NCBI GenBank assembly: GCA_051745855.1
Contig: JBNJEK010000001.1
Location: 9,683 to 73,682 of the forward strand
From: Armatimonadota bacterium
GTDB taxonomy: Bacteria; Armatimonadota; Zipacnadia; Zipacnadales; UBA5352
Reading direction: 5' to 3'
DNA: 64,000 nt
A program made the translations under genes and the position numbers. Under the pieces are notes generated by a model. The model saw only the letters and a program-made list of their open reading frames with translations, did not search any database and was not told where the DNA came from. Positions 5,239-28,462 of this stretch are shown here, piece after piece; positions within the stretch are counted from its first letter, which is position 1; each line of letters starts with the position of its first letter.

Positions 5239-5257
5239 CTGCGGAGGAGATGAGAAG

Positions 5258-6310
5258 ATGAAGTATTCACATGAGAACGTGATCTTCGCGTATGAACCGC
5301 GCATTATCTTCGAGCGCGATGAGACCTGGACATACGCACGGGAGCCGGTCTTCAGGCGCATGCCCGACGACAGCTTCGTCTGCCTGCACTACGCAGGCGG
5401 GCCGCGGGAGCCGCATGATGACAACCTCGTGCTGATCACGCGCAGCGACGATGACGGCGACACGTGGAGCGAGCCGGAGGTGCTCTTCGATCACCCGCAT
5501 CGCGGGGTCTGGTGCACTGAGCTTTTCGTCGAGGAGGGGCCGCCGTGCGCGTTTGTGCACACACTCGAGGCGGCCAGCCGCTACTGCGACCTGCACACCT
5601 TTCGCTCGTGGACCTATGACAGCGGGAGGACGTGGACCGAACCGGCGTCGTTGCCGGGGACGCCGACTCATGTTTCGACCCGCCAGGGGATTGTGCTGGG
5701 CGACGGTGCATGGCTTTTCCCCGTCTACTGGCAGGAGCAGGTGAGCGGCTTTTCGTGGGAGCGCGATCCGGATGACCGGAAGCCGCTTGCGACGCGAAGC
5801 TGGCCTTTCCGCTGCGGGGTGATGCGCTCGGAGGACGGCGGGGAGAGCTTCACCCAGCACGGGTACATCCGCCATCCGGAGGTGACGCTGTGGGAGCCGA
5901 ATGTGGCCGAGGTGGCGGACGGCTGCCTGATGATGCTGATGCGCGCGGAGGGGACGGGCGCGCTGTGGCGCAGTGACTCGTGTGATGGCGGCCTCACGTG
6001 GTCGGAGCCGCATCCGACGGATATTCCGAATCCCTCGACGAAGCTGACGTTGCTGACGCATGACGACGCTGTGATTCTGCTGAACAACCCGAGCGCAGTG
6101 AAAGGGGAGCGCAGGCCGCTTGAGCTGTGGGTGAGCCGCGACCGCGGAGCGACCTGGCCCACGCGACTGACGCTTGCGGACGTGACCGAGGGCCGGGGGG
6201 TGTACTATCCGCACGGTCAGATTGACGCCGAGCGCGGAACGCTCTACGTGGCCTGCGACACCTCGCAGGTGCATTACCTGCTGAAAGTGCCACTGGCGGA
6301 CTTTCTCTGA
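5258..6310 (+). CDS. BNR/Asp-box repeat exo-alpha-sialidase-like (GH33-like) protein
   Basis: Five Asp-box motifs are present: SDDDGDTW, SGRTW, SEDGGESF, SCDGGLTW and SRDRGATW. GGAGGA lies upstream. It has no signal peptide and starts 20 bp after the preceding GH gene, so the two are probably co-transcribed. Confidence 0.8.
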   Translation: MKYSHENVIFAYEPRIIFERDETWTYAREPVFRRMPDDSFVCLHYAGGPREPHDDNLVLITRSDDDGDTWSEPEVLFDHPHRGVWCTELFVEEGPPCAFVHTLEAASRYCDLHTFRSWTYDSGRTWTEPASLPGTPTHVSTRQGIVLGDGAWLFPVYWQEQVSGFSWERDPDDRKPLATRSWPFRCGVMRSEDGGESFTQHGYIRHPEVTLWEPNVAEVADGCLMMLMRAEGTGALWRSDSCDGGLTWSEPHPTDIPNPSTKLTLLTHDDAVILLNNPSAVKGERRPLELWVSRDRGATWPTRLTLADVTEGRGVYYPHGQIDAERGTLYVACDTSQVHYLLKVPLADFL

Positions 6311-6328
6311 GCGGGGGCCGGCCTCGCG

Positions 6329-6685
6329 TCAGATCGCATTGGCGGCGATGATGCTTTCGAGCAGTCGGCCGAGGATCAGCGCGTCGGCCGCATCGTCCTC
6401 GGACGCGTACTGCTCGGGGTCGCGGTTCACCCACGCCTCCGCGACCCGCCAGCAGTCGCCGTCGTCCTGCAGTCTGACACGGAAGATGCAGTTGCCGGTC
6501 CAGCTTCGGCACAGAGAGAACCAGCCGTCATCCTCGAATGCAAACCACCTGTCTTCCTGCGAGCGGGGGATCACCCCCTGGATCAAGGCATTGTACTGCG
6601 AGTCGCTGAGCGTGCGGTTCAGATCAAGCTGTGCCCGTTGGTCAGGCATTCGCTTGTGCGTGTGATTCCCCGGAGTTGCCCTCAT
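6329..6685 (-). CDS. Hypothetical protein (118 aa)
   Basis: The ORF has a good GGGAGGT RBS 6 nt upstream of its ATG. I recognised no domain. It is convergent with the sialidase-like gene. Confidence 0.5.
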   Translation of the reverse strand: MRATPGNHTHKRMPDQRAQLDLNRTLSDSQYNALIQGVIPRSQEDRWFAFEDDGWFSLCRSWTGNCIFRVRLQDDGDCWRVAEAWVNRDPEQYASEDDAADALILGRLLESIIAANAI

Positions 6686-7866: not shown

Positions 7867-8910
7867 ATGCCTGATGGCACCATCCGCTACGCGTGCATCG
7901 GCTGCGGGAGCATTGCCAACAACTATCACCTGCCAGCGCTGGCGCGGATCGAGGCGGCGCAATTTGTCGTCGCCTGCGACATCGATGAGGAGCGCGCACG
8001 TGCCACCGGTGACAGATGGGACGCCCCTGAGATCGCGACCGACTGGGAACTGATCGTCGAGCGCGACGACCTCGATCTCATCTGCGTGTTCACGAAGGTG
8101 GACGCCCACGCGGAGATCACCGTGGCCGCGGCGAATGCGGGGCGGCATGTCTTCGTGCAGAAGCCATTCGCCCGCACTGTCGCCGAAGGGCAGGCGATGG
8201 TGGAGGCGGCGCACGTGGCCGGGGTGCGGATGGTGCCGTCGTTCATGCACAGGTACTTCGATGAGTCGCTGAAGGCGGCGGAACTCGTCCGCGAGGGCGC
8301 GGTGGGGGAGATCGAGTTCATCCGCCAGCGCAACGCGACGCGTAATCCGCGACAGACCGCGCCGGGCTACGGCGGGGCGTTGATGGACATCGGCGCGCAC
8401 GGGATCGACCTGGTGCGCGCGATCTCGGGCAGTGAGATCACGCGCGTCTGCTCGAGGCTCGATGATCCGGGCGTGTCGCCCGACAAAGTGCGCGAGGAGC
8501 GCGATCTGCGCGGCGGCGAGGTCAACGCGTTCATGCTTTACGAGCTTGAGTCGGGCGCGGCGGTGAGTCACGAGGTGCAGTGGTCGCAGGCGGCCGGGGC
8601 TTCGCGCTTTCAGACGGAGATCTACGGCACACACGGGACCATCCTGCTCCGCTCGCCACTGACCGAGGCGGACCTCGCGGTGCATTCGACACCGGACGCC
8701 GAGGACCCGCTCGACGAGTCGATCGACTGGCGGACGCCGGAGTTGCCCGGGCGTGAGATGGGCGCCGCACAGCATGAGGCACTGATCGAGGCCCTGCTGA
8801 CCGGCGAGGACGGCGCGCAGACCGCGGAGGACGGGCTGGCGGTGCTCAGGGTCTGTGAGGCCGCACGGCAGTCGGCGGTGTGTGATCGGTGGGAGGATGT
8901 TTTCGAGTAG
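7867..8910 (+). CDS. Gfo/Idh/MocA family oxidoreductase
   Basis: The N-terminal Rossmann motif IRYACIGCGSIANNYHLPA and HVFVQKPFA are present, followed by the Gfo/Idh/MocA C-terminal fold. An alternative GTG start at 7858 would overlap the AKR stop. Confidence 0.88.
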   Translation: MPDGTIRYACIGCGSIANNYHLPALARIEAAQFVVACDIDEERARATGDRWDAPEIATDWELIVERDDLDLICVFTKVDAHAEITVAAANAGRHVFVQKPFARTVAEGQAMVEAAHVAGVRMVPSFMHRYFDESLKAAELVREGAVGEIEFIRQRNATRNPRQTAPGYGGALMDIGAHGIDLVRAISGSEITRVCSRLDDPGVSPDKVREERDLRGGEVNAFMLYELESGAAVSHEVQWSQAAGASRFQTEIYGTHGTILLRSPLTEADLAVHSTPDAEDPLDESIDWRTPELPGREMGAAQHEALIEALLTGEDGAQTAEDGLAVLRVCEAARQSAVCDRWEDVFE

Positions 8911-9075
8911 GAACGCGGTGGCGGAGGGGAGAAGCGGCGTCGGGCCAGGGCAGGCCCGACCTCCGGACAGCAACGACGAACGGCCCCCTCCGCGCAGTGG
9001 CGGCGCAAACGACGCGCCGCGGGCGGGAGAGTGGAGTAGGACAGACGTATCAGCAACCGAGGGAGGTCACCAACC

Positions 9076-9849
9076 GTGCGCGTTTCATTCATTGTTCGGC
9101 CGGGAGATGACAGGAGAGAGGCGGCGGCTTTTGCGGCGGGCGAGGGGATTGAGGGGCTGGAATTGATGTACCACTCGCCAGAGGCGGGCGACTTCGACGA
9201 CGCCGACGAGGTGCTCGCCATCTGCGAGCAGTACCAGGTGCGCGTCTCAGCGGTCGGCGTCTGGCACATCGGCCTCTCCGATCCGCCTGAGAAGGGCACG
9301 CGGGAGATTGTCGCGGAGGGCCTGGAGTACGCCGGGAAGGTCGGGGCGGACTGCTTCTTCACCGGCGCCGGGGAGCCCGAGGACGAGGACCAGGTGGGCG
9401 CGCTGGCCGAGGTGTGGCCGCACTGGAGCGATCTTGCGAGGGCGCAGGCGTTGGATCTTGCGGTCTACCTCGGTCACAAGGGGAGCTTCCTGTGCAGCGA
9501 AGCGCAGGTCGCGGCAGCGATCGAGCGCGTTGATGGGATCGGACTGAAGCTCGATCCGGTGGGGATTATCCGCAACCTCAATGCCGACCCTTACGACTTC
9601 CTCCACCGCTTCGGAGCAAGCTGCGCGTTCTTCCACGCGAAGGATAAGCTCGCGCTCAGCGACGGTGAGATCGAGCCGCCGCCGGGGATGGGCGAGCTTG
9701 AGTGGGGGCAGATGTTCGGGATATTGTATCAGCACGGCTACGATGGCTGGGTGAGCATCGAGCCGCACGGGAAGTTCTGGAATGCGGCGGACAACCGATG
9801 GCGTTACGTTCGGCTTGCCGAGCGGCACCTGCGGCAGTTCATGGCGTAA
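9076..9849 (+). CDS. Sugar phosphate isomerase/epimerase (xylose-isomerase-like TIM barrel)
   Basis: It has the AP-endonuclease-2 / xylose-isomerase-like TIM pattern (GIEGLEL...HAKD...WVSIEPH). The GTG start has GGGAGGT 8 nt upstream. Confidence 0.85.
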   Translation: MRVSFIVRPGDDRREAAAFAAGEGIEGLELMYHSPEAGDFDDADEVLAICEQYQVRVSAVGVWHIGLSDPPEKGTREIVAEGLEYAGKVGADCFFTGAGEPEDEDQVGALAEVWPHWSDLARAQALDLAVYLGHKGSFLCSEAQVAAAIERVDGIGLKLDPVGIIRNLNADPYDFLHRFGASCAFFHAKDKLALSDGEIEPPPGMGELEWGQMFGILYQHGYDGWVSIEPHGKFWNAADNRWRYVRLAERHLRQFMA

Positions 9850-15469: not shown

Positions 15470-18028
15470 TCAGGCGGCCCACCTGACATGTGCGGCGTCG
15501 GCGGGATCGACAAGTTCGCCGTGATTCGGCAGCACGCGCGCAGTGTATCCCCACCGTCCGGCGCCGTCGCAGACTATCTCGCCGATGAACCGCTCCCCGC
15601 CGGGGGCAGGGCCGGTGTGCCGCATCCTGATCTCGCGGGGCTCGAGGAATTCCCCCGAACTGTCCACGTTGCCGAACTGCAGTTGAACCATCACGTCGTC
15701 AGGCGAGAGTTCGCCGAGTGCCACGTCGGCGGTGACCGTGATCGTATCAGCATACCACGTGGCCTCGTCGATGTCGTCGGTGATGCGCAGGCACGCGACA
15801 TGAGGCCAGTTGCTCTCAACGCGACGCCGCCATGCCGCGAGATCGCGCGCAGTTCGGAAGCCCTCAGCGGCGAGGGCCTCACTGTGACTGATCGCGGGCA
15901 GGTAGAAGCGCTCGACGTACTCGCCGACCATGCGGTTGGAGTTGAATCGCGGGCAGATCGCCTGCATCGCGCTCTTCATCTTCGCGACCCACCCATGCGG
16001 CGTACCGTCCGCTCCGCGGTCATAGAAGAGGGGGATGATCTCCTGCTCAAGCAGCGTGTAAAGCGCCTCTGACTCCACCTGATCCTGGTGCTCGGGATCG
16101 GCATACTCCTCCCCGCGGCCGATCGCCCAGCCCGTCTCCGGCGAGTAGGCCTCATCCCACCAGCCGTCGAGGATCGAGCAGTTCAGTCCGCCGTTGGCGG
16201 TGACTTTCATCCCGCTGGTCCCGCTGGCTTCCATCGGCCTGCGCGGGGTATTGAGCCACACATCGACGCCCTGCACGATGTACCGCGCCAGTTGGAGGTC
16301 GTAGTCCTCGAGGAAGACGACACGCTGTCTCACCTCCGGGTCATTTGTGAAGTGCACCACGTCGCGGATAAGCTCCTTGCCCGGCCGGTCGTCGGGGTGC
16401 GCCTTGCCGGCGAATATGAGCTGGATGGGGCGGTCGCGGTCGGTGAGCATCGCCCGGAGGCGCTCGCCGTCGCGCAGGATCAAAGTGGCGCGCTTGTACG
16501 TGGCGAAGCGCCGGCCGAAACCAATCGTGAGCGCCTCGGGGTCGAGCGCCTCATGCGCCCGGCTCAGCGCCGCCTGGCCTGCGCCTCGGTGCTGCAGTTG
16601 GGAGTGAAGCTGCCGGCGCGCGACCGCGACCAGCCGCTCTCTGCGGCGCTCGTGGGCGCGCCACAGCTCCGTCTCGGGAATATCCGCGACGCGGGCCCAG
16701 ACGCTCTGATCGCCCGGCTCAGTGCGCCAGCCGGAGCCGAGGTAGCGGTCGAAGAGTGTCGCCATGTCGTCGGAGATGAAGGAGCCCGTGTGAATGCCGT
16801 TGGTGATCGAGTCGATCGGCGTCTCGTCGCAAGGCAGGTCGGGCCACTCATGCGACCAGGTGCTCCGCGAGACCCTGCCGTGCAGCTGGCTGACGCCGTT
16901 GCGCCACGCCGAGAAGCGCAGGGCGAGGACCGTCATCGAGAAGTGTTCGGAGCCGCCGGAGCGCCCGGCGCCGAGCGCCATGAACTCATCCGCGGTGAGG
17001 CCGAGCTTCGGATGATACTGCTCGAAGTAGCGCTCGATGAGGGAGCGCGGGAAGCGGTCATGGCCGGCGAGGACTGGAGTGTGCGTGGTGAAGATGTTGC
17101 CGACGCGAGTGGCCTCGACGGCGTCCTCGAAGGTCAGATCGTGATCCACCATCATCAGCCTCACGCGCTCCAGTGCAAGGAACGCCGCGTGGCCTTCGTT
17201 GAGATGGAATGTCCGCGGTGGCGTTTGAAGGCAGTGTTCGAGTGCCTGCACGCCGCCGATCCCGAGCAGCATCTCCTGGCGGATGCGCATGTCGAGATCG
17301 CCGCCGTAGAGTTGGTACGTTATCTGGCGGTCGGCGGGAGAGTTCGCCTCAGTATTGGTGTCGAGGAGATAAAGTGGGACGCGTCCGACCCTCACCCGCC
17401 AGACATTTGCGTGGACAATCCGGTCGCCGATCGGGACGCGGACGCACAGCGGGCACCTGTCATCCGCGCACTTGACCTGCTCGACCGGCATGGTGTGAAA
17501 GTCGCTTTCGGAGTATTCCTCCTGCTGCCAGCCGTCGGGGTTGAGGTACTGGCTGAAGTAGCCGACCTGGTAGAGCAGGCCAACCCCGACAAGCGGCACG
17601 CCCATGTCGCTGGCGCTCTTGAGATGGTCGCCGGCCAGCACACCGAGGCCGCCGGCGTAGATCGGGAGCGATTCGCTGATACCGTATTCGAGGCTGAAGT
17701 AGGCGATGGTGTCCTCCAGCCGATCCGGATGGTTGCGGGTGAACCATGTCTCACCGCTCAGGTAGCGCTCGAAGTCGGCTGCGACGCGGTCGAGGTGCCC
17801 GCGGAAAGATGCATCGGCGAGCAGTTTCTGCCACCGCTCCTGTCTGATCATACCGAGCATCTTGACAGGGTTGTGACCGGTCTCCTCCCACAGGTCGCGG
17901 TCGATTCGGCGCAGGAGTTCGCGCGCGTCCGGGGTGTAACTCCACCACAGGTTCATTGCAAGGTCTGTCAGCGGTCGCAGGCTCTCGGGCAATCGCGGTC
18001 GGACGGTGTAACTTCGGTAGGCTTTCAC
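15470..18028 (-). CDS. glgP: Alpha-glucan (glycogen/maltodextrin) phosphorylase, GlgP/DUF3417-type
   Basis: The characteristic N-terminus is present (YTVRPRLPESL...LAMNLWWSW-like), with the PLP-enzyme core (FAGKAHPDD, TSGMKV). I placed the GTG start at 18028 because GGAGGTG lies 6 nt upstream. Confidence 0.9.
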   Translation of the reverse strand: MKAYRSYTVRPRLPESLRPLTDLAMNLWWSYTPDARELLRRIDRDLWEETGHNPVKMLGMIRQERWQKLLADASFRGHLDRVAADFERYLSGETWFTRNHPDRLEDTIAYFSLEYGISESLPIYAGGLGVLAGDHLKSASDMGVPLVGVGLLYQVGYFSQYLNPDGWQQEEYSESDFHTMPVEQVKCADDRCPLCVRVPIGDRIVHANVWRVRVGRVPLYLLDTNTEANSPADRQITYQLYGGDLDMRIRQEMLLGIGGVQALEHCLQTPPRTFHLNEGHAAFLALERVRLMMVDHDLTFEDAVEATRVGNIFTTHTPVLAGHDRFPRSLIERYFEQYHPKLGLTADEFMALGAGRSGGSEHFSMTVLALRFSAWRNGVSQLHGRVSRSTWSHEWPDLPCDETPIDSITNGIHTGSFISDDMATLFDRYLGSGWRTEPGDQSVWARVADIPETELWRAHERRRERLVAVARRQLHSQLQHRGAGQAALSRAHEALDPEALTIGFGRRFATYKRATLILRDGERLRAMLTDRDRPIQLIFAGKAHPDDRPGKELIRDVVHFTNDPEVRQRVVFLEDYDLQLARYIVQGVDVWLNTPRRPMEASGTSGMKVTANGGLNCSILDGWWDEAYSPETGWAIGRGEEYADPEHQDQVESEALYTLLEQEIIPLFYDRGADGTPHGWVAKMKSAMQAICPRFNSNRMVGEYVERFYLPAISHSEALAAEGFRTARDLAAWRRRVESNWPHVACLRITDDIDEATWYADTITVTADVALGELSPDDVMVQLQFGNVDSSGEFLEPREIRMRHTGPAPGGERFIGEIVCDGAGRWGYTARVLPNHGELVDPADAAHVRWAA

Positions 18029-18181
18029 TGCGCGCACCTCCGGACGTTCATTCGCTCCCGCAACACCCCTGCAAGCGGCGTACCACGCGCGATTGACTGC
18101 CTGACGAGCGGAGGCGATCAGCAATGCCGGGGCGAAGAACAATCATGCGATGAGTGCGTCGTTGGTCCAAGGAGTGTGCGG

Positions 18182-19279
18182 ATGATGTGCGACGGGCTGA
18201 GAATTGGGCTGGAGATACTCGATTCCCTTGGAGACGCCATCGACGCCGGGATCACCCCCGGCGCGGTCTGCCTCGTCGGGCGCGGCGAGAGGACGCTCTG
18301 CCACGAGGCAGTCGGCCATCGCTGCCTCGAGCCTCAGCGCCTGCCGATGGAGCGCGACACCGTCTTCGATCTCGCTTCGCTGACGAAGCCGTTCGCCACC
18401 GCCACCGTGATTCTGCAACTCGCCGAGCGTGGCGCGCTGTCGCTGGACGATCGGGTTTCGCGCTGGCTGCCAGCGTTTGATCGCGGCGACCGCGCGGGCG
18501 TGACGCTCGCAGATCTGCTGGCGCACTGCTCGGGCCTGCCGGCGTACTGGCGACCGGGCGAGCGCGAGCGGAAGCTGCGGTTGAGCGAGCGCCGTGAGCA
18601 CATGATCGATGCGATCTGCAGCCTGCCGCTCGAATATGCGCCGGGCGAGGGATCAGTGTACTCCTGCCTCGGCTTCATTCTGCTCGCCTCGGTTGCTGAA
18701 GCAGCAGGCGGGTGCCCGCTTGCCGATCTTGCTCGCGAGGGCATCTTTGAGCCGCTGGGCATGGGGGACACGTGCTTTTGTCCGACGCCCGAACTCTGCG
18801 AACGTTGCGCCGGGACCGAGCGACTACCTGAGGGGACGCTGGTCGGCGTAGTGCATGACGAGAACGCGCGCTACCTCGGGGGCGTCGGAGGGAATGCGGG
18901 GCTCTTCAGCACCGCCGCGGATCTGGCGCGCTTCGTTCGGGCGATCCTCGGTGGGGGCGAGCTTGATGGTGTGCGAATCCTGAGCGAGGAGAGTGTTGGC
19001 GCGATGCTCGCGCCCCGCCCGCAACCTGGCGACGTGCCGCGCACGCTGGGGTGGAGGGGAGCGAATCTGGACGATGTTCACCTGCATGGCGCGCCGACAC
19101 GAGACAGCGTCGGTCACACCGGCTTCACCGGGACGTGTCTGTGGATTGACGAGGCGAGTGAGACCTTCATGATCCTGCTGACGAACCGGGTGCACATGGG
19201 GCGCGACGCCGAGATCGACAGGCTGCGTCGGCGCGTGGGAGAGATCGTGGGAGAGTTCATCGAGGAGAGTGCCGGATGA
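18182..19279 (+). CDS. Serine hydrolase, beta-lactamase/transpeptidase-like family
   Basis: The S-x-x-K active-site motif (FDLASLTKPF) and class-C-like beta-lactamase-family features are present. AAGGAG lies 7 nt upstream. The rest of the long +-strand ORF (16088..) is the shadow of glgP. Confidence 0.85.
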   Translation: MMCDGLRIGLEILDSLGDAIDAGITPGAVCLVGRGERTLCHEAVGHRCLEPQRLPMERDTVFDLASLTKPFATATVILQLAERGALSLDDRVSRWLPAFDRGDRAGVTLADLLAHCSGLPAYWRPGERERKLRLSERREHMIDAICSLPLEYAPGEGSVYSCLGFILLASVAEAAGGCPLADLAREGIFEPLGMGDTCFCPTPELCERCAGTERLPEGTLVGVVHDENARYLGGVGGNAGLFSTAADLARFVRAILGGGELDGVRILSEESVGAMLAPRPQPGDVPRTLGWRGANLDDVHLHGAPTRDSVGHTGFTGTCLWIDEASETFMILLTNRVHMGRDAEIDRLRRRVGEIVGEFIEESAG

Positions 19280-20676: not shown

Positions 20677-20922
20677 CTACGCCGGCTTCTGCGGCGCCCA
20701 CTCGTGTCCGCATTTCCAGCACTTGATCTGCTCGCCCCAGGTCTCAACGCGATTCTCGGCCTCGCAGTCGGGGCACACGGCGATCTGTGTGTCGCCATCT
20801 TCCGGCGGACCAGTGACAGTCGCAGAATCTTCCTCAGTCGAGCAACCCACGCCTGCAATTGCACCGAGACCCACCAGCAGGCCCCCGGCCCCGACGAGCC
20901 TTACAAACTCGCGGCGATCCAT
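20677..20922 (-). CDS. Small Tat-signal zinc-ribbon protein (81 aa)
   Basis: It begins with RREFVRLVGAGGLL, a twin-arginine-like signal. A CxxC...CxxC ribbon follows (CPDCEAEN...CWKCGH). GAGGTGGAG lies upstream. Confidence 0.5.
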   Translation of the reverse strand: MDRREFVRLVGAGGLLVGLGAIAGVGCSTEEDSATVTGPPEDGDTQIAVCPDCEAENRVETWGEQIKCWKCGHEWAPQKPA

Positions 20923-21006: not shown

Positions 21007-21762
21007 CTATCTCAGCGCCGAGTGAATCAGCATCCCAGAGGCGATCAGCAGCACCGCGTAGAGGATGCGGCGGAAGATCGCTTCATCAACGCGGTAGTGC
21101 GCGAAGGTGCCGAGGATCAGGCCCGCGATCATGAACGGCGCGCACCAGCCTGCCAGCGTCAGCACCTCCGCGGTGAGGCGCCCCGAAGCCGCCCACTGGC
21201 CGATCAGGATCGTGTTCAGCACCAGCCACAGCAGGCTCATTGTCACGCGGAAGAGCGACTTATCCGGGAGGGCCCGGGCGCAATACACCACGAGCACCGG
21301 CCCGCCTGAGCCGAACGCGCCGTGCACGGCGCCTCCCAGGGGAAGGAGCGCGGTGATCCCGCGGCCCTTCCAGCCGCTGAGGCCACCGTCCTCGGCGCAG
21401 GGGGGATGCGGATGCGCGAGGCCGTGGACGCTGACGATGCCGGTGAACACGCCGAGGACGAGCTTCAGCGGGTTTTCGGGCAGATGCTCCGCCATCACGA
21501 TCCCGACCGGCAGGCCGATGACCACGAACGCGAGGAGCTTGCCGAATGCCGCCCAGTTGATGTGCCCACGGGCCTCGATGACGATGAAAGCCGCCAGCAG
21601 CCACGCCTGCATCACCAGCACCGGCACCGCGACCTCCAGGCCGATCAGCAGTGTGACAAAAGGCAGCGCGAGAACCGTCGCGCCAAAGCCGGTGATCGAC
21701 CCCTGGAAGTTCGTCAGGAAGACGACCAGGAAGATTAGCCCGAGCCGCGCCGCCTCGCTCAC
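21007..21762 (-). CDS. TSUP family (TauE/SafE) sulfite/sulfonate exporter
   Basis: It is a polytopic membrane protein with the TauE/SafE duplication pattern. Its GTG start lies 7 bp after the rpiB-like stop. Confidence 0.85.
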   Translation of the reverse strand: MSEAARLGLIFLVVFLTNFQGSITGFGATVLALPFVTLLIGLEVAVPVLVMQAWLLAAFIVIEARGHINWAAFGKLLAFVVIGLPVGIVMAEHLPENPLKLVLGVFTGIVSVHGLAHPHPPCAEDGGLSGWKGRGITALLPLGGAVHGAFGSGGPVLVVYCARALPDKSLFRVTMSLLWLVLNTILIGQWAASGRLTAEVLTLAGWCAPFMIAGLILGTFAHYRVDEAIFRRILYAVLLIASGMLIHSALR

Positions 21763-21768
21763 AGGTGC

Positions 21769-22269
21769 CTACTCGAGCGTCTCGAGGTCGCGATCGGTGG
21801 CCTCGTCGCCGCGGGCAGCGATCTCGTCGCGGGCCTCCGCCCAGAAGTCGAGTACATCCTGCGGGATGCCCTCGACATCCTGGAACTTCTCGGTCAGGAA
21901 GACCTCCGCCATCCGCTTGCCCTGGTCGGGCGTGACGAGGCTCTCGCCCATGCACATGCAGTTCGCATCATTGACCCACCGCACGAACTCCGCCGCCATC
22001 ACGCTCTCGCAGGAGACCGCGCAGACGCCCCTGAACTTGTTCGCGGCGAGGCTCATTCCCGTGCCGCTGCCGCAGCAGAGGATCGCCCGGTCGGCCTTAT
22101 CCTGCTGGAGCACCCACGCGGCACGCTCGGCGATGGACGGGAACTTGACGAACGTGTCGAAGTCATACGCGCCCACGTCAATGTATTCATATTCGTTCTG
22201 CTCCAGCCACTCGACGATGGCGTTCTTGAGCAGAAGTCCCTTGACGACCGATCCGACGACAACTTTCAT
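21769..22269 (-). CDS. rpiB: RpiB/LacA/LacB family sugar-phosphate isomerase
   Basis: The CCGSGTGMSLAANK active-site motif is present. It lies 5 bp downstream of the transketolase C-subunit gene. Confidence 0.85.
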   Translation of the reverse strand: MKVVVGSVVKGLLLKNAIVEWLEQNEYEYIDVGAYDFDTFVKFPSIAERAAWVLQQDKADRAILCCGSGTGMSLAANKFRGVCAVSCESVMAAEFVRWVNDANCMCMGESLVTPDQGKRMAEVFLTEKFQDVEGIPQDVLDFWAEARDEIAARGDEATDRDLETLE

Positions 22270-22273
22270 GGCG

Positions 22274-23215
22274 CTAACCCTCTCTGCAGGCCTGCTTGAT
22301 GTGCTCGACGTTCATCTCGTGTTTGTCCAGCAGATACTGCTCGGTCGCGACCTCGCCGAACTGATCGTTCACGCCGAGGCGCGTCACGCGCGTCGGCATC
22401 TTCTCCGACAGCACTTCGCACGCCGCCCCGCCGAGGCCGCCGATCACGCTCTGATTCTCCACGGTCACCACGTGCCCGGTCGTCGCCGCCGATTCCAGCA
22501 GGCTGTCCTCGTCGAAGGGCTTGACGGACGCGTAGTGAAAGTGATCGACCGCCACGCCGTCGTCCTCGAGTTCGGCCACCGCCTGCTGCGCGAACTGCGT
22601 CATCCATCCAGTGCTGATCAGTGTCGCCGCGTCCCCCTCGCTCATGCGCACCGCGGTCGCGGGGTCGAACGCGTAGTCGTGGTCGAAGATCTGCGGCTGC
22701 GTGGGGCGGATCATCTGCATGTACATCGGGCCCTCGTGCTCGGCCATCCAGCGGACGCATGAGGCAAGCTCGTACACATCGCACGGAGAGAAGACGGTCA
22801 TGTTCGGCATCGCGCGCATGATCGCGAGATCCTGAAAGCACATGTGCGTGCCACCGTTGGCGCCGGTGGTGATGCCCGGCGCAGTGCCGACGATCTTCAC
22901 GTTCGCGTCGGCGTAGGCCACGGAGATCGTGATCGCGTCGTAGACCCGGCGGGTCGCGAAGGGCGTGAAGCTCGCGCAGAAGGGGATGAATCCCTCCACG
23001 GCCATCCCAGCGCCGATGCCGATCATGTTCGCCTCCGCCACGCCGGTGTCGATGAACCGATCCGGATGCGCTTCAGAGAACGTCGGGATCGTCCCGGAGG
23101 CTTTCCCGAGATCGGCCTCGATGACGGCGATGTTCGGATTACTGTCCGCAAGGTCCACCAGCGTCAGCGCGTAGACGTTGCGCATCTCAAGTTCGTGAAG
23201 CGGAATGTCAGTCAT
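22274..23215 (-). CDS. Transketolase, C-terminal (pyrimidine-binding) subunit of a split enzyme
   Basis: The transketolase Pyr domain (GIAEANMIGIGAGMA) and C-terminal domain are present. Confidence 0.9.
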   Translation of the reverse strand: MTDIPLHELEMRNVYALTLVDLADSNPNIAVIEADLGKASGTIPTFSEAHPDRFIDTGVAEANMIGIGAGMAVEGFIPFCASFTPFATRRVYDAITISVAYADANVKIVGTAPGITTGANGGTHMCFQDLAIMRAMPNMTVFSPCDVYELASCVRWMAEHEGPMYMQMIRPTQPQIFDHDYAFDPATAVRMSEGDAATLISTGWMTQFAQQAVAELEDDGVAVDHFHYASVKPFDEDSLLESAATTGHVVTVENQSVIGGLGGAACEVLSEKMPTRVTRLGVNDQFGEVATEQYLLDKHEMNVEHIKQACREG

Positions 23216-23218
23216 CTC

Positions 23219-24076
23219 TCACTCCACCTCGTAGGGAAGCTCATAATCCTGACAATCGAGGGCGCACATGTACTTCTCAAAATCCTCAGCGTCGCCCACC
23301 TTGATGTTGTGACTCTCCGGCCGATCCTGCACCACCGCGCAGCCGCGTGCCTTCGTGGTGTGTGCGATGATCATGACCGGCCCGCCCTCGAATTCGCGCG
23401 CGGCTTTGACGGTGTCGTGGATGTCATCCCAGTCGTGACCGTCCATCTCCATCACTTCCCAGTTGAACGAGCGCCACTTGTCCGCCAGCGGCTCAAGCGT
23501 CACGACCTCGTCGGTCCTGCCGTCGATCTGCAGCTTGTTGTAATCCGTGATGCCGATGAGGTTGCTCAGCCTGTTGTGACCGGCGAACATCGCCGCCTCC
23601 CAGACCATCCCCTCATCACTCTCACCGTCGCCGACGATGCAGTACACATCGTGACTCTGCCCGCGGATGCGCGCCGCCAGCGCAAAGCCGCAGGCCGCCG
23701 ACATCCCCTGCCCGAGCGAACCGGCGGTCATGTCGATGCCCGTGGTGAGCAGCCGGTCGCAGTGGCTGGGAAGGTTCGTCCCGTTCTCATTGATCGTCTT
23801 GAGCTCTTCCTTCGGGAAGAACCCCTGGTAGGCCAGCGCGACGTAAAGCACCGGTCCCGCGTGGCCCTTGGACATGATCAGGCGGTCGCGTTCCTCCCAC
23901 TGCGGATTGTCGGGGTCGAACTTCATGATCCGCCAGTAAAGACTGATCACCGTCTCCACGAGGCTCAACGAGCCACCGAGGTGGCCCGAGCCGGAGCGGC
24001 AGATCATGTCCGTGATGACGTAGCGAAACTCACCCGCCAGGTCATCGAACGCTTCGCGGTCGAATGCTTCGCTCAT
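23219..24076 (-). CDS. Transketolase, N-terminal (TPP-binding) subunit of a split enzyme
   Basis: The TPP-binding motif GDGESDEG and HLGGSLS are present. Confidence 0.9.
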   Translation of the reverse strand: MSEAFDREAFDDLAGEFRYVITDMICRSGSGHLGGSLSLVETVISLYWRIMKFDPDNPQWEERDRLIMSKGHAGPVLYVALAYQGFFPKEELKTINENGTNLPSHCDRLLTTGIDMTAGSLGQGMSAACGFALAARIRGQSHDVYCIVGDGESDEGMVWEAAMFAGHNRLSNLIGITDYNKLQIDGRTDEVVTLEPLADKWRSFNWEVMEMDGHDWDDIHDTVKAAREFEGGPVMIIAHTTKARGCAVVQDRPESHNIKVGDAEDFEKYMCALDCQDYELPYEVE

Positions 24077-24085
24077 AGAATCTCC

Positions 24086-25213
24086 TCAGAGCATCCGTCG
24101 GTAGATCCCGGCGAGTTGCTCGGGCGTGACCTCGCGCGGGTTGTTCTCCATCAGCGGGTGGAAGCTGCCCTCGACGAGCACCGGGATGTCGTCCGTGGTG
24201 ACGCCGAAGTCAGACAGCCGCGTGGGCAGGCCGGACCTCGCCTTCATCGCCGCGAACGCGTCCGCCATCTGCGCCATGGTCTCAAAGCCTCCGGCCCGTG
24301 CGAGGCGTTCGCCTCGCCCACCCATCGCGGGCGCGTTGAAGCGCATGAAGTGATCGAGCGTTAGCGCGCACGCCGTTCCGTGCGGGAGATGATAGGTGGC
24401 GGAGAACGGGAACGAGCAGGCGTGGACGGCCGCGTTCTTGGGCGCCTGAAAGGCCATCCCGCCCAGCAGCGCGGCCAGCGACATCCCCTCGCGCGCGGCC
24501 AGGTCGGAACCATCCTGCATTACCCGGGGCATGTGCTCAAAGAAGAGCCGCACGGCCTCCAGCGCAAGCGCGTCGGAGATCGGGTTGTGATTGCGCGACC
24601 AGTAGCCCTCGACCGCGTGCGCGAGTGCGTCGAAGCCCGTCGAGGCGGTGACTTTCGGCGGCATCGACTCCGTCAGAGCCGGGTCCACCAGCGCCACCGC
24701 CGGGAAAAAGTTGTCATGTACCAGCGGCGCCTTGACTCCCTTCTCAGGGTCATCGAGCACCGCGATCGGCGTGACCTCACTGCCCGTGCCGGCGGTGGTC
24801 GGGATCGCGATCAGCGGAAGGTGGCGCTCGTCGAGCGCGCCGCCCTCTGAATGATACTTCCGCGCCGGACCGCCCTGCTGTGAGACCGATCCGGCGGCCT
24901 TGGCGCAATCAAGCGAGCTTCCGCCGCCGGCCGCCACCAGCAGATCGGCGTCATGCTCGCGGATCTGCTCACTCAGCGCGTCCACCATCTCCACCGTCGG
25001 ATTCGGCTCGATGTCGGCAAAGACGGGGGTGTCGGCAGGCAGGCGCTCGCGCAGGTCCTCGATGATCGGCAGCTCTGCGAGGCCGCTGTCCGTCACGAGG
25101 ACCGGCCGCCTGCCCAGCGTCTGCGTGATCCCCGGCAGTGTAATCCGTGCGCCTCTGCCGAAGTGGATCTCGGTGGGGTCCGCGAATCTCCAGACATCAG
25201 CGGTCGCTGCCAT
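24086..25213 (-). CDS. Iron-containing (group III) alcohol dehydrogenase
   Basis: The Fe-ADH fold is recognisable (AAGGGSSLDCAKA, metal-site His residues). It is the first gene of the minus-strand operon. Confidence 0.9.
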   Translation of the reverse strand: MAATADVWRFADPTEIHFGRGARITLPGITQTLGRRPVLVTDSGLAELPIIEDLRERLPADTPVFADIEPNPTVEMVDALSEQIREHDADLLVAAGGGSSLDCAKAAGSVSQQGGPARKYHSEGGALDERHLPLIAIPTTAGTGSEVTPIAVLDDPEKGVKAPLVHDNFFPAVALVDPALTESMPPKVTASTGFDALAHAVEGYWSRNHNPISDALALEAVRLFFEHMPRVMQDGSDLAAREGMSLAALLGGMAFQAPKNAAVHACSFPFSATYHLPHGTACALTLDHFMRFNAPAMGGRGERLARAGGFETMAQMADAFAAMKARSGLPTRLSDFGVTTDDIPVLVEGSFHPLMENNPREVTPEQLAGIYRRML

Positions 25214-25454
25214 GTTGGCTCCCCTGCCCTCTTCTATGCCGTGCGCCTGGCTGTCATCAGGTTCCCCGCCCGCCTCCCGATGCCCTTCCGCGCCGCCTCG
25301 CCAGCTGCGGTTTCCCCGCCCCTCGCAAGCTTTCCGACAGGTTTCGCGTCACTTTGCAGGTCCCCGCGTCTTTTCGTGGAAACAATCGAATGCGTGTTGC
25401 TGACTCGTGGTGGCGATCGCCGCCATTTCAGGATCCGCCCGGGAGGGTCATGCG

Positions 25455-26633
25455 ATGGATCAGATCAATGTTGGGCTCGTCGGCTACAACTTCATGGGCC
25501 GCGCACACTCCAATGCCTACCGCCAGGTGCCGTTTTTCTTCCCCGAGCTTGAAGCTGAGCCGGTGATGAAGGTGCTCTGCGGAAGGACGAAGGAGCGCGT
25601 GGACGCCTGCGCTGAGCAGTTCGGGTGGGAGGAGACCGTCTACGACGTCGATGACCTCCTCGCCCGCGACGATATCGACCTCGTTGATATCACTGCGCCG
25701 AACAACCAGCACGCCGAACTGGCCATCAAGGCCGCCGAGGCGGGCAAGCACGTGTTCTGCGAAAAGCCACTCGCGACCAGCGTCGAGGACGGCGAGCGGA
25801 TGGTCAAGGCCGTCCAGGACGCCGGCGTCATCCACATGATCTGCCACAACTACCGCCGCGCGCCCGCGATCTCGCTTGCGAAGAAGATGATCGACAATGG
25901 CGACCTCGGCGAGATCTACCACTGGCGCTCGCTCTACCTGCAGGACTGGCTGATGCCGCCGGAGGTCCCGATGATGTGGCGCGTGCGCAAGGAGATCGCG
26001 GGCTCCGGCTCGCTGGGCGATCTGATGGCCCACTCGATCGACCTCGCGCTCTGGATGCTGGGCGACATTGAGTCACTCGCCTGCACCATGGAGACCTTCA
26101 TCGAGGAGCGCCCGAAGATGGAGAGCTTCGACACCGGACTCGGCGGAAGGGCCTCCGAGGACGCCGAGATGGGCACCGTGGACGTGGACGACGGCGTCGT
26201 TGCGCTCTGCCGCTTCGCCAACGGCGCACTCGGAACGATGGAGGCCACGCGTTTCGCGGCCGGCCACAAGAATTACAACTGGTTCGAGGTCAACGGCTCG
26301 AAGGGCTCGATCCGCTTCAACCTTGAGCGCATGAACGAGCTTGAGTACTACGACTGCGAGGATCCCGGCGACCGCACCGGTTTCCGCCTGATCCAGGCGA
26401 CAGACGACTCGCACCCGTACATGGGCCTGCCTGATGAGGGCGGCCCGCGCTACTGGCCGGTGGCGCATATCATCGGCTACGAGCACACCTTCATCAACAC
26501 GGTCTTCGACCTCTGCCAGGGCATCGCGAAGAATGAGCAGCCGTGGCCGAGCTTCGAGGACGGCCTGCGCACCCAGAAGGTCCTCGCGGCCTGTGAACTG
26601 GCCTCCGATGACGGGATGTGGGTGGAAGTGTGA
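25455..26633 (+). CDS. Gfo/Idh/MocA family oxidoreductase
   Basis: It begins MDQINVGLVGYNFMGRAHS, with EKPLATSVEDG. GGGAGGG lies 7 nt upstream. Confidence 0.9.
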   Translation: MDQINVGLVGYNFMGRAHSNAYRQVPFFFPELEAEPVMKVLCGRTKERVDACAEQFGWEETVYDVDDLLARDDIDLVDITAPNNQHAELAIKAAEAGKHVFCEKPLATSVEDGERMVKAVQDAGVIHMICHNYRRAPAISLAKKMIDNGDLGEIYHWRSLYLQDWLMPPEVPMMWRVRKEIAGSGSLGDLMAHSIDLALWMLGDIESLACTMETFIEERPKMESFDTGLGGRASEDAEMGTVDVDDGVVALCRFANGALGTMEATRFAAGHKNYNWFEVNGSKGSIRFNLERMNELEYYDCEDPGDRTGFRLIQATDDSHPYMGLPDEGGPRYWPVAHIIGYEHTFINTVFDLCQGIAKNEQPWPSFEDGLRTQKVLAACELASDDGMWVEV

Positions 26634-27493: not shown

Positions 27494-28462
27494 ATGAAAG
27501 TAGGAGCGCTTTCCGCCGCGTGGAGTGACCAGTCGCTCGAGGACGTCTGCGCGTACTTCGCTGAGGCCGGACTCGACACCATCGAGATCGGCACCGGCAA
27601 CTACCCCGGCAACGCGCACGCAGATCCGTTCGAACTCAAGGGGAACAAGAAAAAGCGCGAGGACTTTCTCGCCACCGTCAAGGACCACGGCCTTGAGATC
27701 TCCGCGTTCTCATGCCACGGCAACCCCCTGCACCCCGATGATACGGTTGCCGAGGAGCACCACGAGGTCTGGCGCGCCACCTGCGACCTCGCGCAGCAGT
27801 GTGAGGTCACCTGCGTCAACGGCTTCTCCGGCCTTCCCGGCGGCGGCCCCAATGACGAGACGCCCAACTGGGTTGTCGCGCCGTGGCCCGAAGACCATCT
27901 CGAAGCGCTGGAGTACCAGTGGGACCTCGCCATCGACTACTGGAAGCGCGAGAACGATTACGCCGACAAGCGCGGCGTAAACTTCTGCTTCGAGATGCAC
28001 CCGAACTTCCTCGTGTACAATCCCGAGACCCTCATCAAGCTCCGCGAGGCCTGCGGCGACCGCATGTGCGCGAACTTCGATCCCTCGCACCTGTGGTGGC
28101 AGGGCATGGACCCGTCCTCATGCGTCCGCTGGCTGCAGGAGCACGGCGAGGTCATCCAGCACTTCCACGCCAAGGACGTCGCGGTCTACGACTGGAACGC
28201 GCGCGTCAACGGCGTGCTCGACACGAAGCACTACGGCGACGAGGTCAACCGCTCGTGGATCTTCCGCGCGCTCGGCTACGGCCATGACCAGCTTGAGTGG
28301 AATGAGCTCATCTCCACGTTGCGCATGTGCGGCTACGACGGGCCGCTGTCGATCGAGCACGAGGACTCGCTGATGACCGCCAACGAGGGCTTCATGAAAG
28401 CCATTGCATTCCTCCAGGAGGTCGCCATCCAGGAGGAGCCCGGCGAGATGACGTGGGCGTGA
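27494..28462 (+). CDS. Sugar phosphate isomerase/epimerase (xylose-isomerase-like TIM barrel)
   Basis: GGGAGGAG lies 7 nt upstream. TIM-barrel AP-endonuclease-2-like motifs are present (IEIGTG, FEMHP, HAKD, LSIEHED). Confidence 0.9.
   Translation: MKVGALSAAWSDQSLEDVCAYFAEAGLDTIEIGTGNYPGNAHADPFELKGNKKKREDFLATVKDHGLEISAFSCHGNPLHPDDTVAEEHHEVWRATCDLAQQCEVTCVNGFSGLPGGGPNDETPNWVVAPWPEDHLEALEYQWDLAIDYWKRENDYADKRGVNFCFEMHPNFLVYNPETLIKLREACGDRMCANFDPSHLWWQGMDPSSCVRWLQEHGEVIQHFHAKDVAVYDWNARVNGVLDTKHYGDEVNRSWIFRALGYGHDQLEWNELISTLRMCGYDGPLSIEHEDSLMTANEGFMKAIAFLQEVAIQEEPGEMTWA

Follow-up and report, generated by a model that had tools for sequence, protein, structure and literature searches.

A five-gene operon in Armatimonadota as the probable core of a divergent transketolase-dependent sulfoquinovose pathway

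About 10 billion tonnes of the plant sulfosugar sulfoquinovose are produced each year, and its breakdown supplies isethionate and other sulfonates to bacteria that respire sulfite and to bacteria that mineralise sulfonates. In a 64,000-nucleotide stretch of DNA from an uncultured Armatimonadota bacterium (assembly GCA_051745855.1, contig JBNJEK010000001.1, positions 9,683 to 73,682 of the forward strand; hereafter the window), five minus-strand genes at 21007-25213 encode an iron-type alcohol dehydrogenase (Fe-ADH, or ADH), the N and C halves of a split transketolase (TK-N and TK-C), an RpiB/LacAB-family isomerase and a TauE/SafE permease. The names given to the operon proteins by NCBI are generic (transketolase, RpiB/LacA/LacB family isomerase), and a first-pass annotation of the window read the same genes as a transketolase-dependent sulfoquinovose (sulfo-TK) pathway. 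Which of these descriptions fits the locus is the question addressed here. In this study, we found that the five genes probably encode the central part of a reductive sulfo-TK pathway, as a divergent form that Armatimonadota share with the Planctomycetes-Verrucomicrobia-Chlamydiae (PVC) group. The window proteins belong to a clade of their own, apart from the characterised enzymes, and their active-site signatures are altered.

The reductive sulfo-TK pathway was reportedly described by Liu et al. in 2021 in Clostridium sp. MSTE9 and Faecalicatena spp., and the oxidative variant, with SqwD and SqwKL, is said to have been described by Chu et al. in 2023 in Acholeplasma sp. In both, SqvD converts sulfoquinovose to sulfofructose, the split transketolase SqwGH takes a C2 unit twice, and SqwI (PF02502) acts between these two steps, turning sulfoerythrose into sulfoerythrulose. 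Sulfoacetaldehyde has one of two fates: reduction by the metal-dependent alcohol dehydrogenase SqwF, with SqwE as exporter, or oxidation through SqwD and SqwKL (PMC9594981, PMC12890257). The genes for SqwF, SqwG, SqwH and SqwI are consecutive; their numbers end in 429-432 for Clostridium sp. MSTE9, and Faecalicatena has them as 246-249 (PMC11659671). The operon of the window, with the region upstream of it, is made up as follows.

24086-25213, minus strand: Fe-ADH gene, 375 residues; Pfam PF00465 and PF25137 (Fe-ADH, ADH_Fe_C), 160 and 161 bits.
23219-24076, minus strand: TK-N gene, 285 residues; Pfam PF00456 Transketolase_N, 170 bits.
22274-23215, minus strand: TK-C gene, 313 residues; PF02779 Transket_pyr and PF02780 Transketolase_C, 126 and 77 bits.
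21769-22269, minus strand: RpiB/LacAB-family isomerase gene, 166 residues; Pfam PF02502 LacAB_rpiB, 119 bits.
21007-21762, minus strand: TauE/SafE (TSUP) permease gene, 251 residues, GTG start; Pfam PF01925, 81.7 bits (cut-off 32.6).
25214-25406, no strand: intergenic region that separates the operon from a divergent Gfo/Idh/MocA gene and is presumed to hold the promoter.

The Pfam scores of all five proteins far exceed the curated cut-offs, and third-position GC is 0.85-0.89 in the five frames, in line with real genes in a window of 65% GC. By exact-sequence look-up, the identical five genes are called in four public assemblies that all belong to one Armatimonadota population. The genes lie at the coordinates given in the first-pass annotation and are separated by 9, 3, 4 and 6 nucleotides; the gaps of 2-9 bp given there are essentially right beside the 3-9 nucleotides measured here. 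The five-gene block is found again at 70-84% identity in other Armatimonadota (loci L014 and L097 of our set) amid entirely different flanking genes, and thus behaves as a unit rather than as chance neighbours. From this spacing and synteny we infer that the five genes are co-transcribed, in agreement with the earlier proposal. A consensus scan of the intergenic region 5' of the operon gave no match to a sigma-70-like promoter; 6 nucleotides 5' of the ADH ATG, this region has a GGGGAG motif. No convincing terminator was found by scanning 3' of the TauE gene, and across the entire window, intergenic region included, neither an Rfam family nor a tRNA was detected.

The isomerase passes only the generic NCBIfam model TIGR00689 (RpiB/LacA/LacB) and stays under the rpiB equivalog cut-offs (TIGR01120, 95.4 bits against 138.65; TIGR02133, 107.8 bits against 168.2). 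Its residues were compared across 80 loci from a scan of 185,579 species genomes, aligned with Escherichia coli RpiB, and three groups can be told apart.

Canonical RpiB (42 loci and E. coli): Asp9-His10; His at position 99; Arg at position 110 (few differ).
YihQ- or transketolase-linked isomerases (Tenericutes, Firmicutes): Asp-Lys-Ser at positions 9-11; Ile at 99; Trp at 110.
Clade A, the clade of the window isomerase: Val-Val-Lys at positions 9-11; Val at 99; Ser at 110.

The catalytic Cys66 is retained in all three groups. Like the YihQ-linked group, the window isomerase is without His10 and His99, its replacements being D9V, H10V, H99V and R110S. In neighbour-joining (NJ) trees, the non-His99 enzymes (SqwI-type, namely clade A with the transketolase- or YihQ-linked isomerases) are split from canonical RpiB with 98.5% bootstrap, and the clade-A isomerases have 98%. 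By model score, key residues and tree alike, the RpiB-like protein stands apart from canonical RpiB. An AlphaFold2 model of the protein (predicted local distance difference test score 90) has the RpiB fold; a fold search with this model confirmed the RpiB fold alone, and the PDB holds no SqwI structure. Homologues of 166 residues at 59% identity or more make up at least 120 metagenomic clusters from Armatimonadota, WS1 and Lentisphaeria, and a 35-residue C-terminal extension is conserved among them. We regard the window isomerase as a putative SqwI-like 4-deoxy-4-sulfoerythrose/erythrulose isomerase.

Clade A is present in at least 19 genomes, from Armatimonadota, WS1, Lentisphaerota, Kiritimatiellales, Verrucomicrobiota and Pirellulaceae. 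Both transketolase halves lie directly 5' of the isomerase in 16 of these 19, whereas not one of the 42 loci with canonical RpiB has a transketolase. Next in closeness come isomerases at 40-44% identity, from 15 loci that also carry YihQ, SqvD-like, SqwD/KL-like and both transketolase genes, with a YihQ 46-50% identical to the E. coli sulfoquinovosidase. By this gene content, the 15 YihQ-linked loci are the published oxidative sulfo-TK variant.

TK-N, which is SqwG-like, keeps the equivalents of E. coli His26, His66, His100, Gly114, Asp155, Asn185 and His261, which serve thiamine diphosphate, calcium and catalysis, and its top PDB match is the N chain of a split transketolase, 6YAK. It is 61% identical to a Lentisphaeria cluster protein and 48-53% identical to the YihQ-linked ones. 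In TK-C, a tentatively SqwH-like half with an altered pocket, the positions that face the head group of the substrate correspond to R358, S385, F434, H461 and R520 of E. coli. From modelling, RAFDR has been proposed as the head-group motif of sulfofructose transketolases, as against RSFHR in canonical ones (PMC11659671). In our alignment, RSFHR is found in E. coli TktA and in the Carboxydothermus hydrogenoformans subunit 6YAJ, and RAFDR in all YihQ-linked subunits. The window TK-C reads R-A-F-A-R: two of the four phosphate-binding residues are gone (Ser385 and His461, each replaced by Ala), and Arg358 and Arg520 are kept. Every locus-derived clade-A TK-C with an intact N-terminus has RAF(A/S)R, one database representative has RAFGR, and Pro462 and Asn469 are common to clade A and the Asp-type (SqwH-type) TK-C only.

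An NJ tree of the TK-C sequences from the loci, with 150 representatives from an exhaustive HMMER search, gives clade A 100% bootstrap. The nearest neighbours of clade A are all Asp-type (YihQ-linked), and C. hydrogenoformans and the other His-type sequences fall outside. The preset clade tests, defined by signature, failed on a few sequences with odd residues and were replaced by tree-defined and relaxed criteria; under the relaxed criterion, clade A and all YihQ-linked TK-C come together, with no His-type inside, in 80% of bootstraps. Grouping of the window TK-C with SqwH-type subunits is thus moderately supported. A firm placement of the two halves among housekeeping split transketolases, which the earlier annotation named as a ground for giving up its reading, is not what the RAFAR pocket and this grouping indicate. 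Across the TK-C relatives in general (P0157-P0306), the five head-group positions are diverse, with RSFYR, RSFDR, RPFDR, RAFHR and QAMYR among the combinations, which suggests many uncharacterised substrate specificities among split transketolases.

The closest PDB match of the window ADH is 6JKO (327 bits, E 1e-96, 43% identity), well ahead of the runner-up at 196 bits. This structure is BkTauF, a biochemically characterised sulfoacetaldehyde reductase (PMC6616044). The PDB labels 6JKO and 6JKP 'methanol dehydrogenase', and it is the reporting paper that gives the identity as BkTauF (PMC6616044), so that the most informative homologue of the window ADH is hidden by its label. The BkTauF active site, D192/Q196/F252/T257/H261/F265/H275, corresponds to D/H/F/N/H/F/H in the window ADH. 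Six of these seven positions are conserved or carry a variant known from BkTauF homologues, among which Gln196 to His has been seen (PMC6616044). The YihQ-linked locus L033 has an ADH that shares 51% identity with BkTauF and 43% with the window ADH. On the NCBIfam SarD model NF050025 the window ADH scores 218 bits and does not reach the cut-off of 700; SarD and TauF are a mere 28% identical to each other (PMC6616044). We regard the window ADH as a putative NADH-dependent sulfoacetaldehyde reductase of TauF/SqwF-like type, which would make isethionate.

In the permease, the PF01925 match spans residues 10-242 of 251, and no NCBIfam model matches. A TauE-family gene lies 3' of the isomerase in every clade-A cluster with an Fe-ADH, and a DASS transporter takes its place in the clusters with SauS-like and CoA-ligase genes or with an aldehyde:ferredoxin oxidoreductase (AFOR). 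SqwE has been described as a sulfite/sulfonate transporter (PMC12890257). We consider the permease a putative isethionate exporter that would be SqwE-like in role.

What accompanies the core in relatives bears on the aldehyde that it would release. The Fe-ADH is directly 5' of TK-N in nine or ten clade-A genomes, each with a TauE-family gene after the isomerase. In two others (Lentisphaeria L011/L012 and Verrucomicrobia L020), a SauS-like dehydrogenase, a two-subunit ADP-forming CoA ligase and a DASS symporter stand beside the clade-A core. Among NCBIfam models, this dehydrogenase matches best, at 507 bits, the one for SauS, an acylating sulfoacetaldehyde dehydrogenase (NF047625), and it shares 58-61% identity with its counterpart in YihQ-linked clusters. 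Three swappable aldehyde modules, each with an anion transporter, beside one core would be expected if the core releases an anionic aldehyde, and the SauS-like and TauF-like identities point to sulfoacetaldehyde as that aldehyde. In addition, four clade-A clusters contain a fucose-isomerase-like gene. The one NCBIfam model that it matches is that of SftI, a sulfoquinovose isomerase, at a score of 162 bits that falls far short of the cut-off.

In the third of these modules, an AFOR gene (AFOR_N and AFOR_C domains) with a DASS transporter at 4748-6559 of locus L019 replaces the other aldehyde genes beside the same core. It could represent a third, ferredoxin-linked route of sulfoacetaldehyde oxidation, an ending that we did not find described in the sulfo-TK literature searched.

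The proposal of the first-pass annotation, that the operon belongs to the sulfo-TK pathway, is thus strengthened by the SqwF-G-H-I gene order, the BkTauF-like ADH, the SqwI-type isomerase, the TK-C pocket and the SauS- and SftI-like genes of relatives. In the scheme that we consider likely, the split transketolase would transfer a C2 ketol unit from 6-deoxy-6-sulfofructose to glyceraldehyde-3-phosphate, giving xylulose-5-phosphate and 4-deoxy-4-sulfoerythrose. The RpiB-family isomerase would convert sulfoerythrose to sulfoerythrulose, and a second round of the transketolase would release sulfoacetaldehyde, which the TauF-like Fe-ADH would reduce to isethionate for export by the TauE/SafE permease. 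The supply of sulfofructose (sulfoquinovosidase, sulfoquinovose isomerase and importer) would be encoded elsewhere or achieved differently. Whereas gene content, order and spacing, the kept and lost residues, the tree groupings and the neighbours in relatives are observed, we infer from homology and gene context which substrates are used, which way the permease transports and that sulfoquinovose is the original source.

Several observations weigh against a sulfo-TK assignment. At the pocket, TK-C has Ala where the SqwH motif has Asp (RAFAR versus RAFDR), and the isomerase has V-V-K where the YihQ-linked enzymes have D-K-S. For TK-C, overall identity does not discriminate, being 39-44% with SqwH-type subunits and 42% with the canonical one of C. 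hydrogenoformans, and an exact clade of clade A with the Asp-type TK-C has only 49% bootstrap. Thr257 of BkTauF is Asn in the window ADH and most of its relatives, and a Thr257 to Ala mutant of BkTauF is inactive (PMC6616044). SqwE is documented only as a 'sulfite/sulfonate transporter', and likeness to the MSTE9 enzymes was judged through YihQ-linked proxies. Three relatives (L005, L008 and L015) retain the isomerase and TauE genes without a complete transketolase; they may be either decaying clusters or cases of an isomerase-permease use outside the sulfo-TK model. Finally, YihQ occurs in no clade-A locus, and from about -26 to +47 kb of the operon there is no YihQ, SqgA-like, SqvD/SftI-like, YihS, SqvB or sulfosugar importer gene.

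The search for entry genes covered the window and its surroundings. With E. coli YihO/P/Q/R/S/T/U/V, CsqR and a Lentisphaeria SftI-like protein as queries, tblastn of the window at E<=0.01 returned nothing, and tblastn likewise found in the window no homologue of the class II aldolase, SauS-like gene or ligase of relatives. Pfam maps of the window and its flanks (~26 kb left, 47 kb right) were equally negative for candidate entry enzymes, importers and regulators and for another transketolase. The first-pass annotation was right that the window holds no YihS-like or YihQ-like gene, a point on which tblastn and the context scan agree, but YihS was not the isomerase to expect, since that of sulfo-TK is SqvD/SftI, which is fucose-isomerase-like.

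In the alternative that survives best, the same chemistry acts on a different anionic, non-phosphate sugar, either another C-sulfonated sugar or an O-sulfated ketose from sulfated glycans, with isethionate or a related C2 anion as the product. The Ala/Ser pocket in place of the SqwH Asp, the isomerase signature unlike that of the YihQ-linked enzymes and the lack of YihQ at any clade-A locus would all fit such a substrate, as would the sulfatase-rich genomes of clade A and the DUF4838 or GH116 proteins beside several clusters. However, the SauS-like dehydrogenase of Lentisphaeria and Verrucomicrobia, with SauS as its top match, is close to the YihQ-linked one, the ADH is TauF-like, and four clade-A clusters carry SftI-like isomerases. 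The nearby sulfatases, which we considered as a sign of a sulfate-ester substrate and rejected, share only 25-31% identity among themselves, so that they are not orthologues and look like background abundance. We consider this alternative unlikely.

A variant of the sulfosugar scheme is a self-sufficient module of a kind so far undescribed. Here the clade-A isomerase would carry out both the sulfoquinovose and the sulfoerythrose isomerisations, or the Ala/Ser-type pocket would suit another sulfonated or sulfated sugar, and in Armatimonadota and PVC bacteria the sugar might be released by glycosidases outside GH31 and GH188, such as the DUF4838 or GH116 proteins beside related clusters. If one isomerase with a rebuilt active-site entrance (V-V-K, Val99) and the C-terminal extension did both steps, SqvD or YihS would be unneeded. 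We rate the module as quite unlikely.

The reading closest to the public annotation, with plain transketolase and RpiB/LacA/LacB family isomerase as housekeeping pentose-phosphate genes beside an unrelated ADH and a generic TSUP permease, fares much worse. It is true that split transketolases and RpiB are commonly housekeeping, that TK-C is as close to the canonical C. hydrogenoformans subunit as to SqwH-type ones, and that the 64 kb window shows no second tkt or rpi gene. Nevertheless, this transketolase lacks half of its phosphate-binding residues, and the isomerase lacks Asp9-His10, His99 and Arg110, stays under the rpiB equivalog cut-offs and is split from canonical RpiB in the tree. Against it, too, are the lack of an adjacent transketolase at all 42 canonical RpiB loci, a five-gene block that moves as a unit among unrelated contexts, and an aldehyde module that is swapped in relatives. 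We therefore consider it highly improbable. Hardly credible is the last alternative, in which the ADH and TauE are a disposal pair turning taurine-derived sulfoacetaldehyde into exported isethionate and the transketolase and isomerase are functionally separate: although BkTauF, the closest solved relative, serves taurine nitrogen assimilation with isethionate secretion (PMC6616044), the ADH is directly 5' of TK-N in at least 9 clade-A genomes and no taurine transporter or aminotransferase adjoins the operon, the only nearby aminotransferase being a class IV one 5.6 kb off on the other strand.

Other neighbours of clade-A genes deserve mention. Of the three relatives without a complete transketolase, the WS1 locus L005 (9072-11270) has the TK-C half only, with its Arg358 equivalent unaligned, together with isomerase and TauE, and the Armatimonadetes loci L008 (10001-11264) and L015 (10001-11474) have just isomerase and TauE; a sulfatase gene adjoins on the opposite strand in L005 and L008. 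DUF4838 proteins (PF16126, ~800 residues) adjoin clade-A genes in L014 (11281-13722), L015 (~8082-9725) and L025 (3179-5596 and 10534-12942). They are 29-32% identical to one another, the three host genomes are without YihQ, and the window has no such protein. They may be sulfoquinovosidases that have gone unrecognised. GH116 glycosidases adjoin the clusters of Lentisphaeria L011 (13007-15448) and Victivallales L017 (8086-10482), which also hold an SftI-like isomerase and a class II aldolase-like gene. In Verrucomicrobia and Pirellulaceae clusters (L020, 1082-3303; L024, 4785-7033; L026; L027), a conserved Gfo/Idh/MocA protein of 341 residues, 65-96% identical, sits 5' of both reductive and oxidative versions with an Mlc/NagC-like ROK regulator alongside. 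Its closest structure is 1,5-anhydro-D-fructose reductase, and we rejected it as specifically SqgA-like, its SqgA match having 69 bits at rank 10.

Divergent from the operon in the window itself are two further genes.

25407-26633, plus strand: Gfo/Idh/MocA dehydrogenase; closest PDB entries 4H3V and levoglucosan dehydrogenase 6A3F.
27494-28462, plus strand: xylose-isomerase-like TIM-barrel protein.

On the NCBIfam levoglucosan dehydrogenase model, whose cut-off is 650, the dehydrogenase reaches 397 bits, and the pair resembles a sugar 3-dehydrogenase with a 3-keto-sugar lyase or isomerase. The dehydrogenase was rejected as an NAD-dependent sulfoquinovosidase (SqgA/GH188), SqgA (8QC2/8QC3) being absent from its top 60 structure matches. 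It was also rejected as a member of the system, since it does not accompany the operon in L014 or L097; nor is the pair kept next to the operon in other genomes. On the other side of the operon, 84 nucleotides past the TauE stop, an 81-residue open reading frame (20677-20922, minus strand), which is also called as a gene in a public assembly, shows a twin-arginine-like signal (MDRREFVRLVGAGG) together with a lipobox-like Cys, and the CxxC...CxxC pattern of a zinc ribbon. A 1063-residue plus-strand open reading frame at 16088-19279 is a high-GC artefact; the real genes there are glycogen phosphorylase (15470-18142, minus strand) and a beta-lactamase-family gene (~18185-19279, plus strand).

Reviews place sulfo-TK in strictly anaerobic Firmicutes, Spirochaetes, Thermotogae and Tenericutes (PMC12890257), and recent aquatic surveys recognise pathways through BLASTp matches to verified enzymes, with 40% identity as the lower limit. 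Our literature search found no mention of a divergent Armatimonadota/PVC sulfo-TK clade in sulfoquinovose reviews and surveys, and a search by phylum name returned nothing mentioning sulfoquinovose. Because the clade lies at or below the 40% threshold and its proteins have generic public names, it has likely been missed in sulfur-cycle inventories. The clade also offers natural variants for the study of sulfonate versus phosphate recognition (Asp versus Ala/Ser at the His461 position; D-K-S versus V-V-K), and it points to a possible AFOR route for sulfoacetaldehyde and to candidate new sulfoquinovosidases.

Among known systems, the reductive sulfo-TK pathway of MSTE9 and Faecalicatena has the same families in the same order (Fe-ADH, TK-N, TK-C, isomerase) plus a sulfonate-type permease, and the window shares with it the split transketolase, S385A, Pro462, Asn469, the loss of His10/His99 and a TauF/SqwF-like ADH. 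As judged from the YihQ-linked proxies, identity to it is ~40-44% for isomerase, TK-C and ADH and ~48-53% for TK-N. The window differs in its signatures (RAFAR for RAFDR, V-V-K for D-K-S), in the conserved extension of 35 residues at the C-terminus of the isomerase, and in being without linked SqvD, SqvB, YihQ/SqgA, ABC importer and regulator. Its host, too, is an Armatimonadota bacterium, whereas sulfo-TK has been reported from Firmicutes, Spirochaetes, Thermotogae and Tenericutes (PMC12890257). The ending of the oxidative sulfo-TK pathway of Acholeplasma is found in the clade-A relatives L011/L012 and L020 but not in the window, which has the reductive ending (ADH and TauE) and no dehydrogenase, ligase or DASS transporter of the oxidative type.

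With BkTauF of taurine nitrogen assimilation (PMC6616044), the window ADH shares the metal ligands, Phe252, His261, Phe265 and His275, and the operon shares the logic of reducing and then exporting. In contrast, Thr257 is Asn in the window, sulfoacetaldehyde would come from a transketolase rather than from taurine transamination, and taurine genes are absent. The canonical split transketolase of C. hydrogenoformans (6YAK/6YAJ) has the same fold, thiamine diphosphate/calcium ligands and histidines as the window enzyme, which departs from it by S385A and H461A. Likewise, the window isomerase has the fold and Cys66 of canonical RpiB from E. coli and Mycobacterium tuberculosis, but it carries D9V, H10V, H99V and R110S and belongs to a separate clade.

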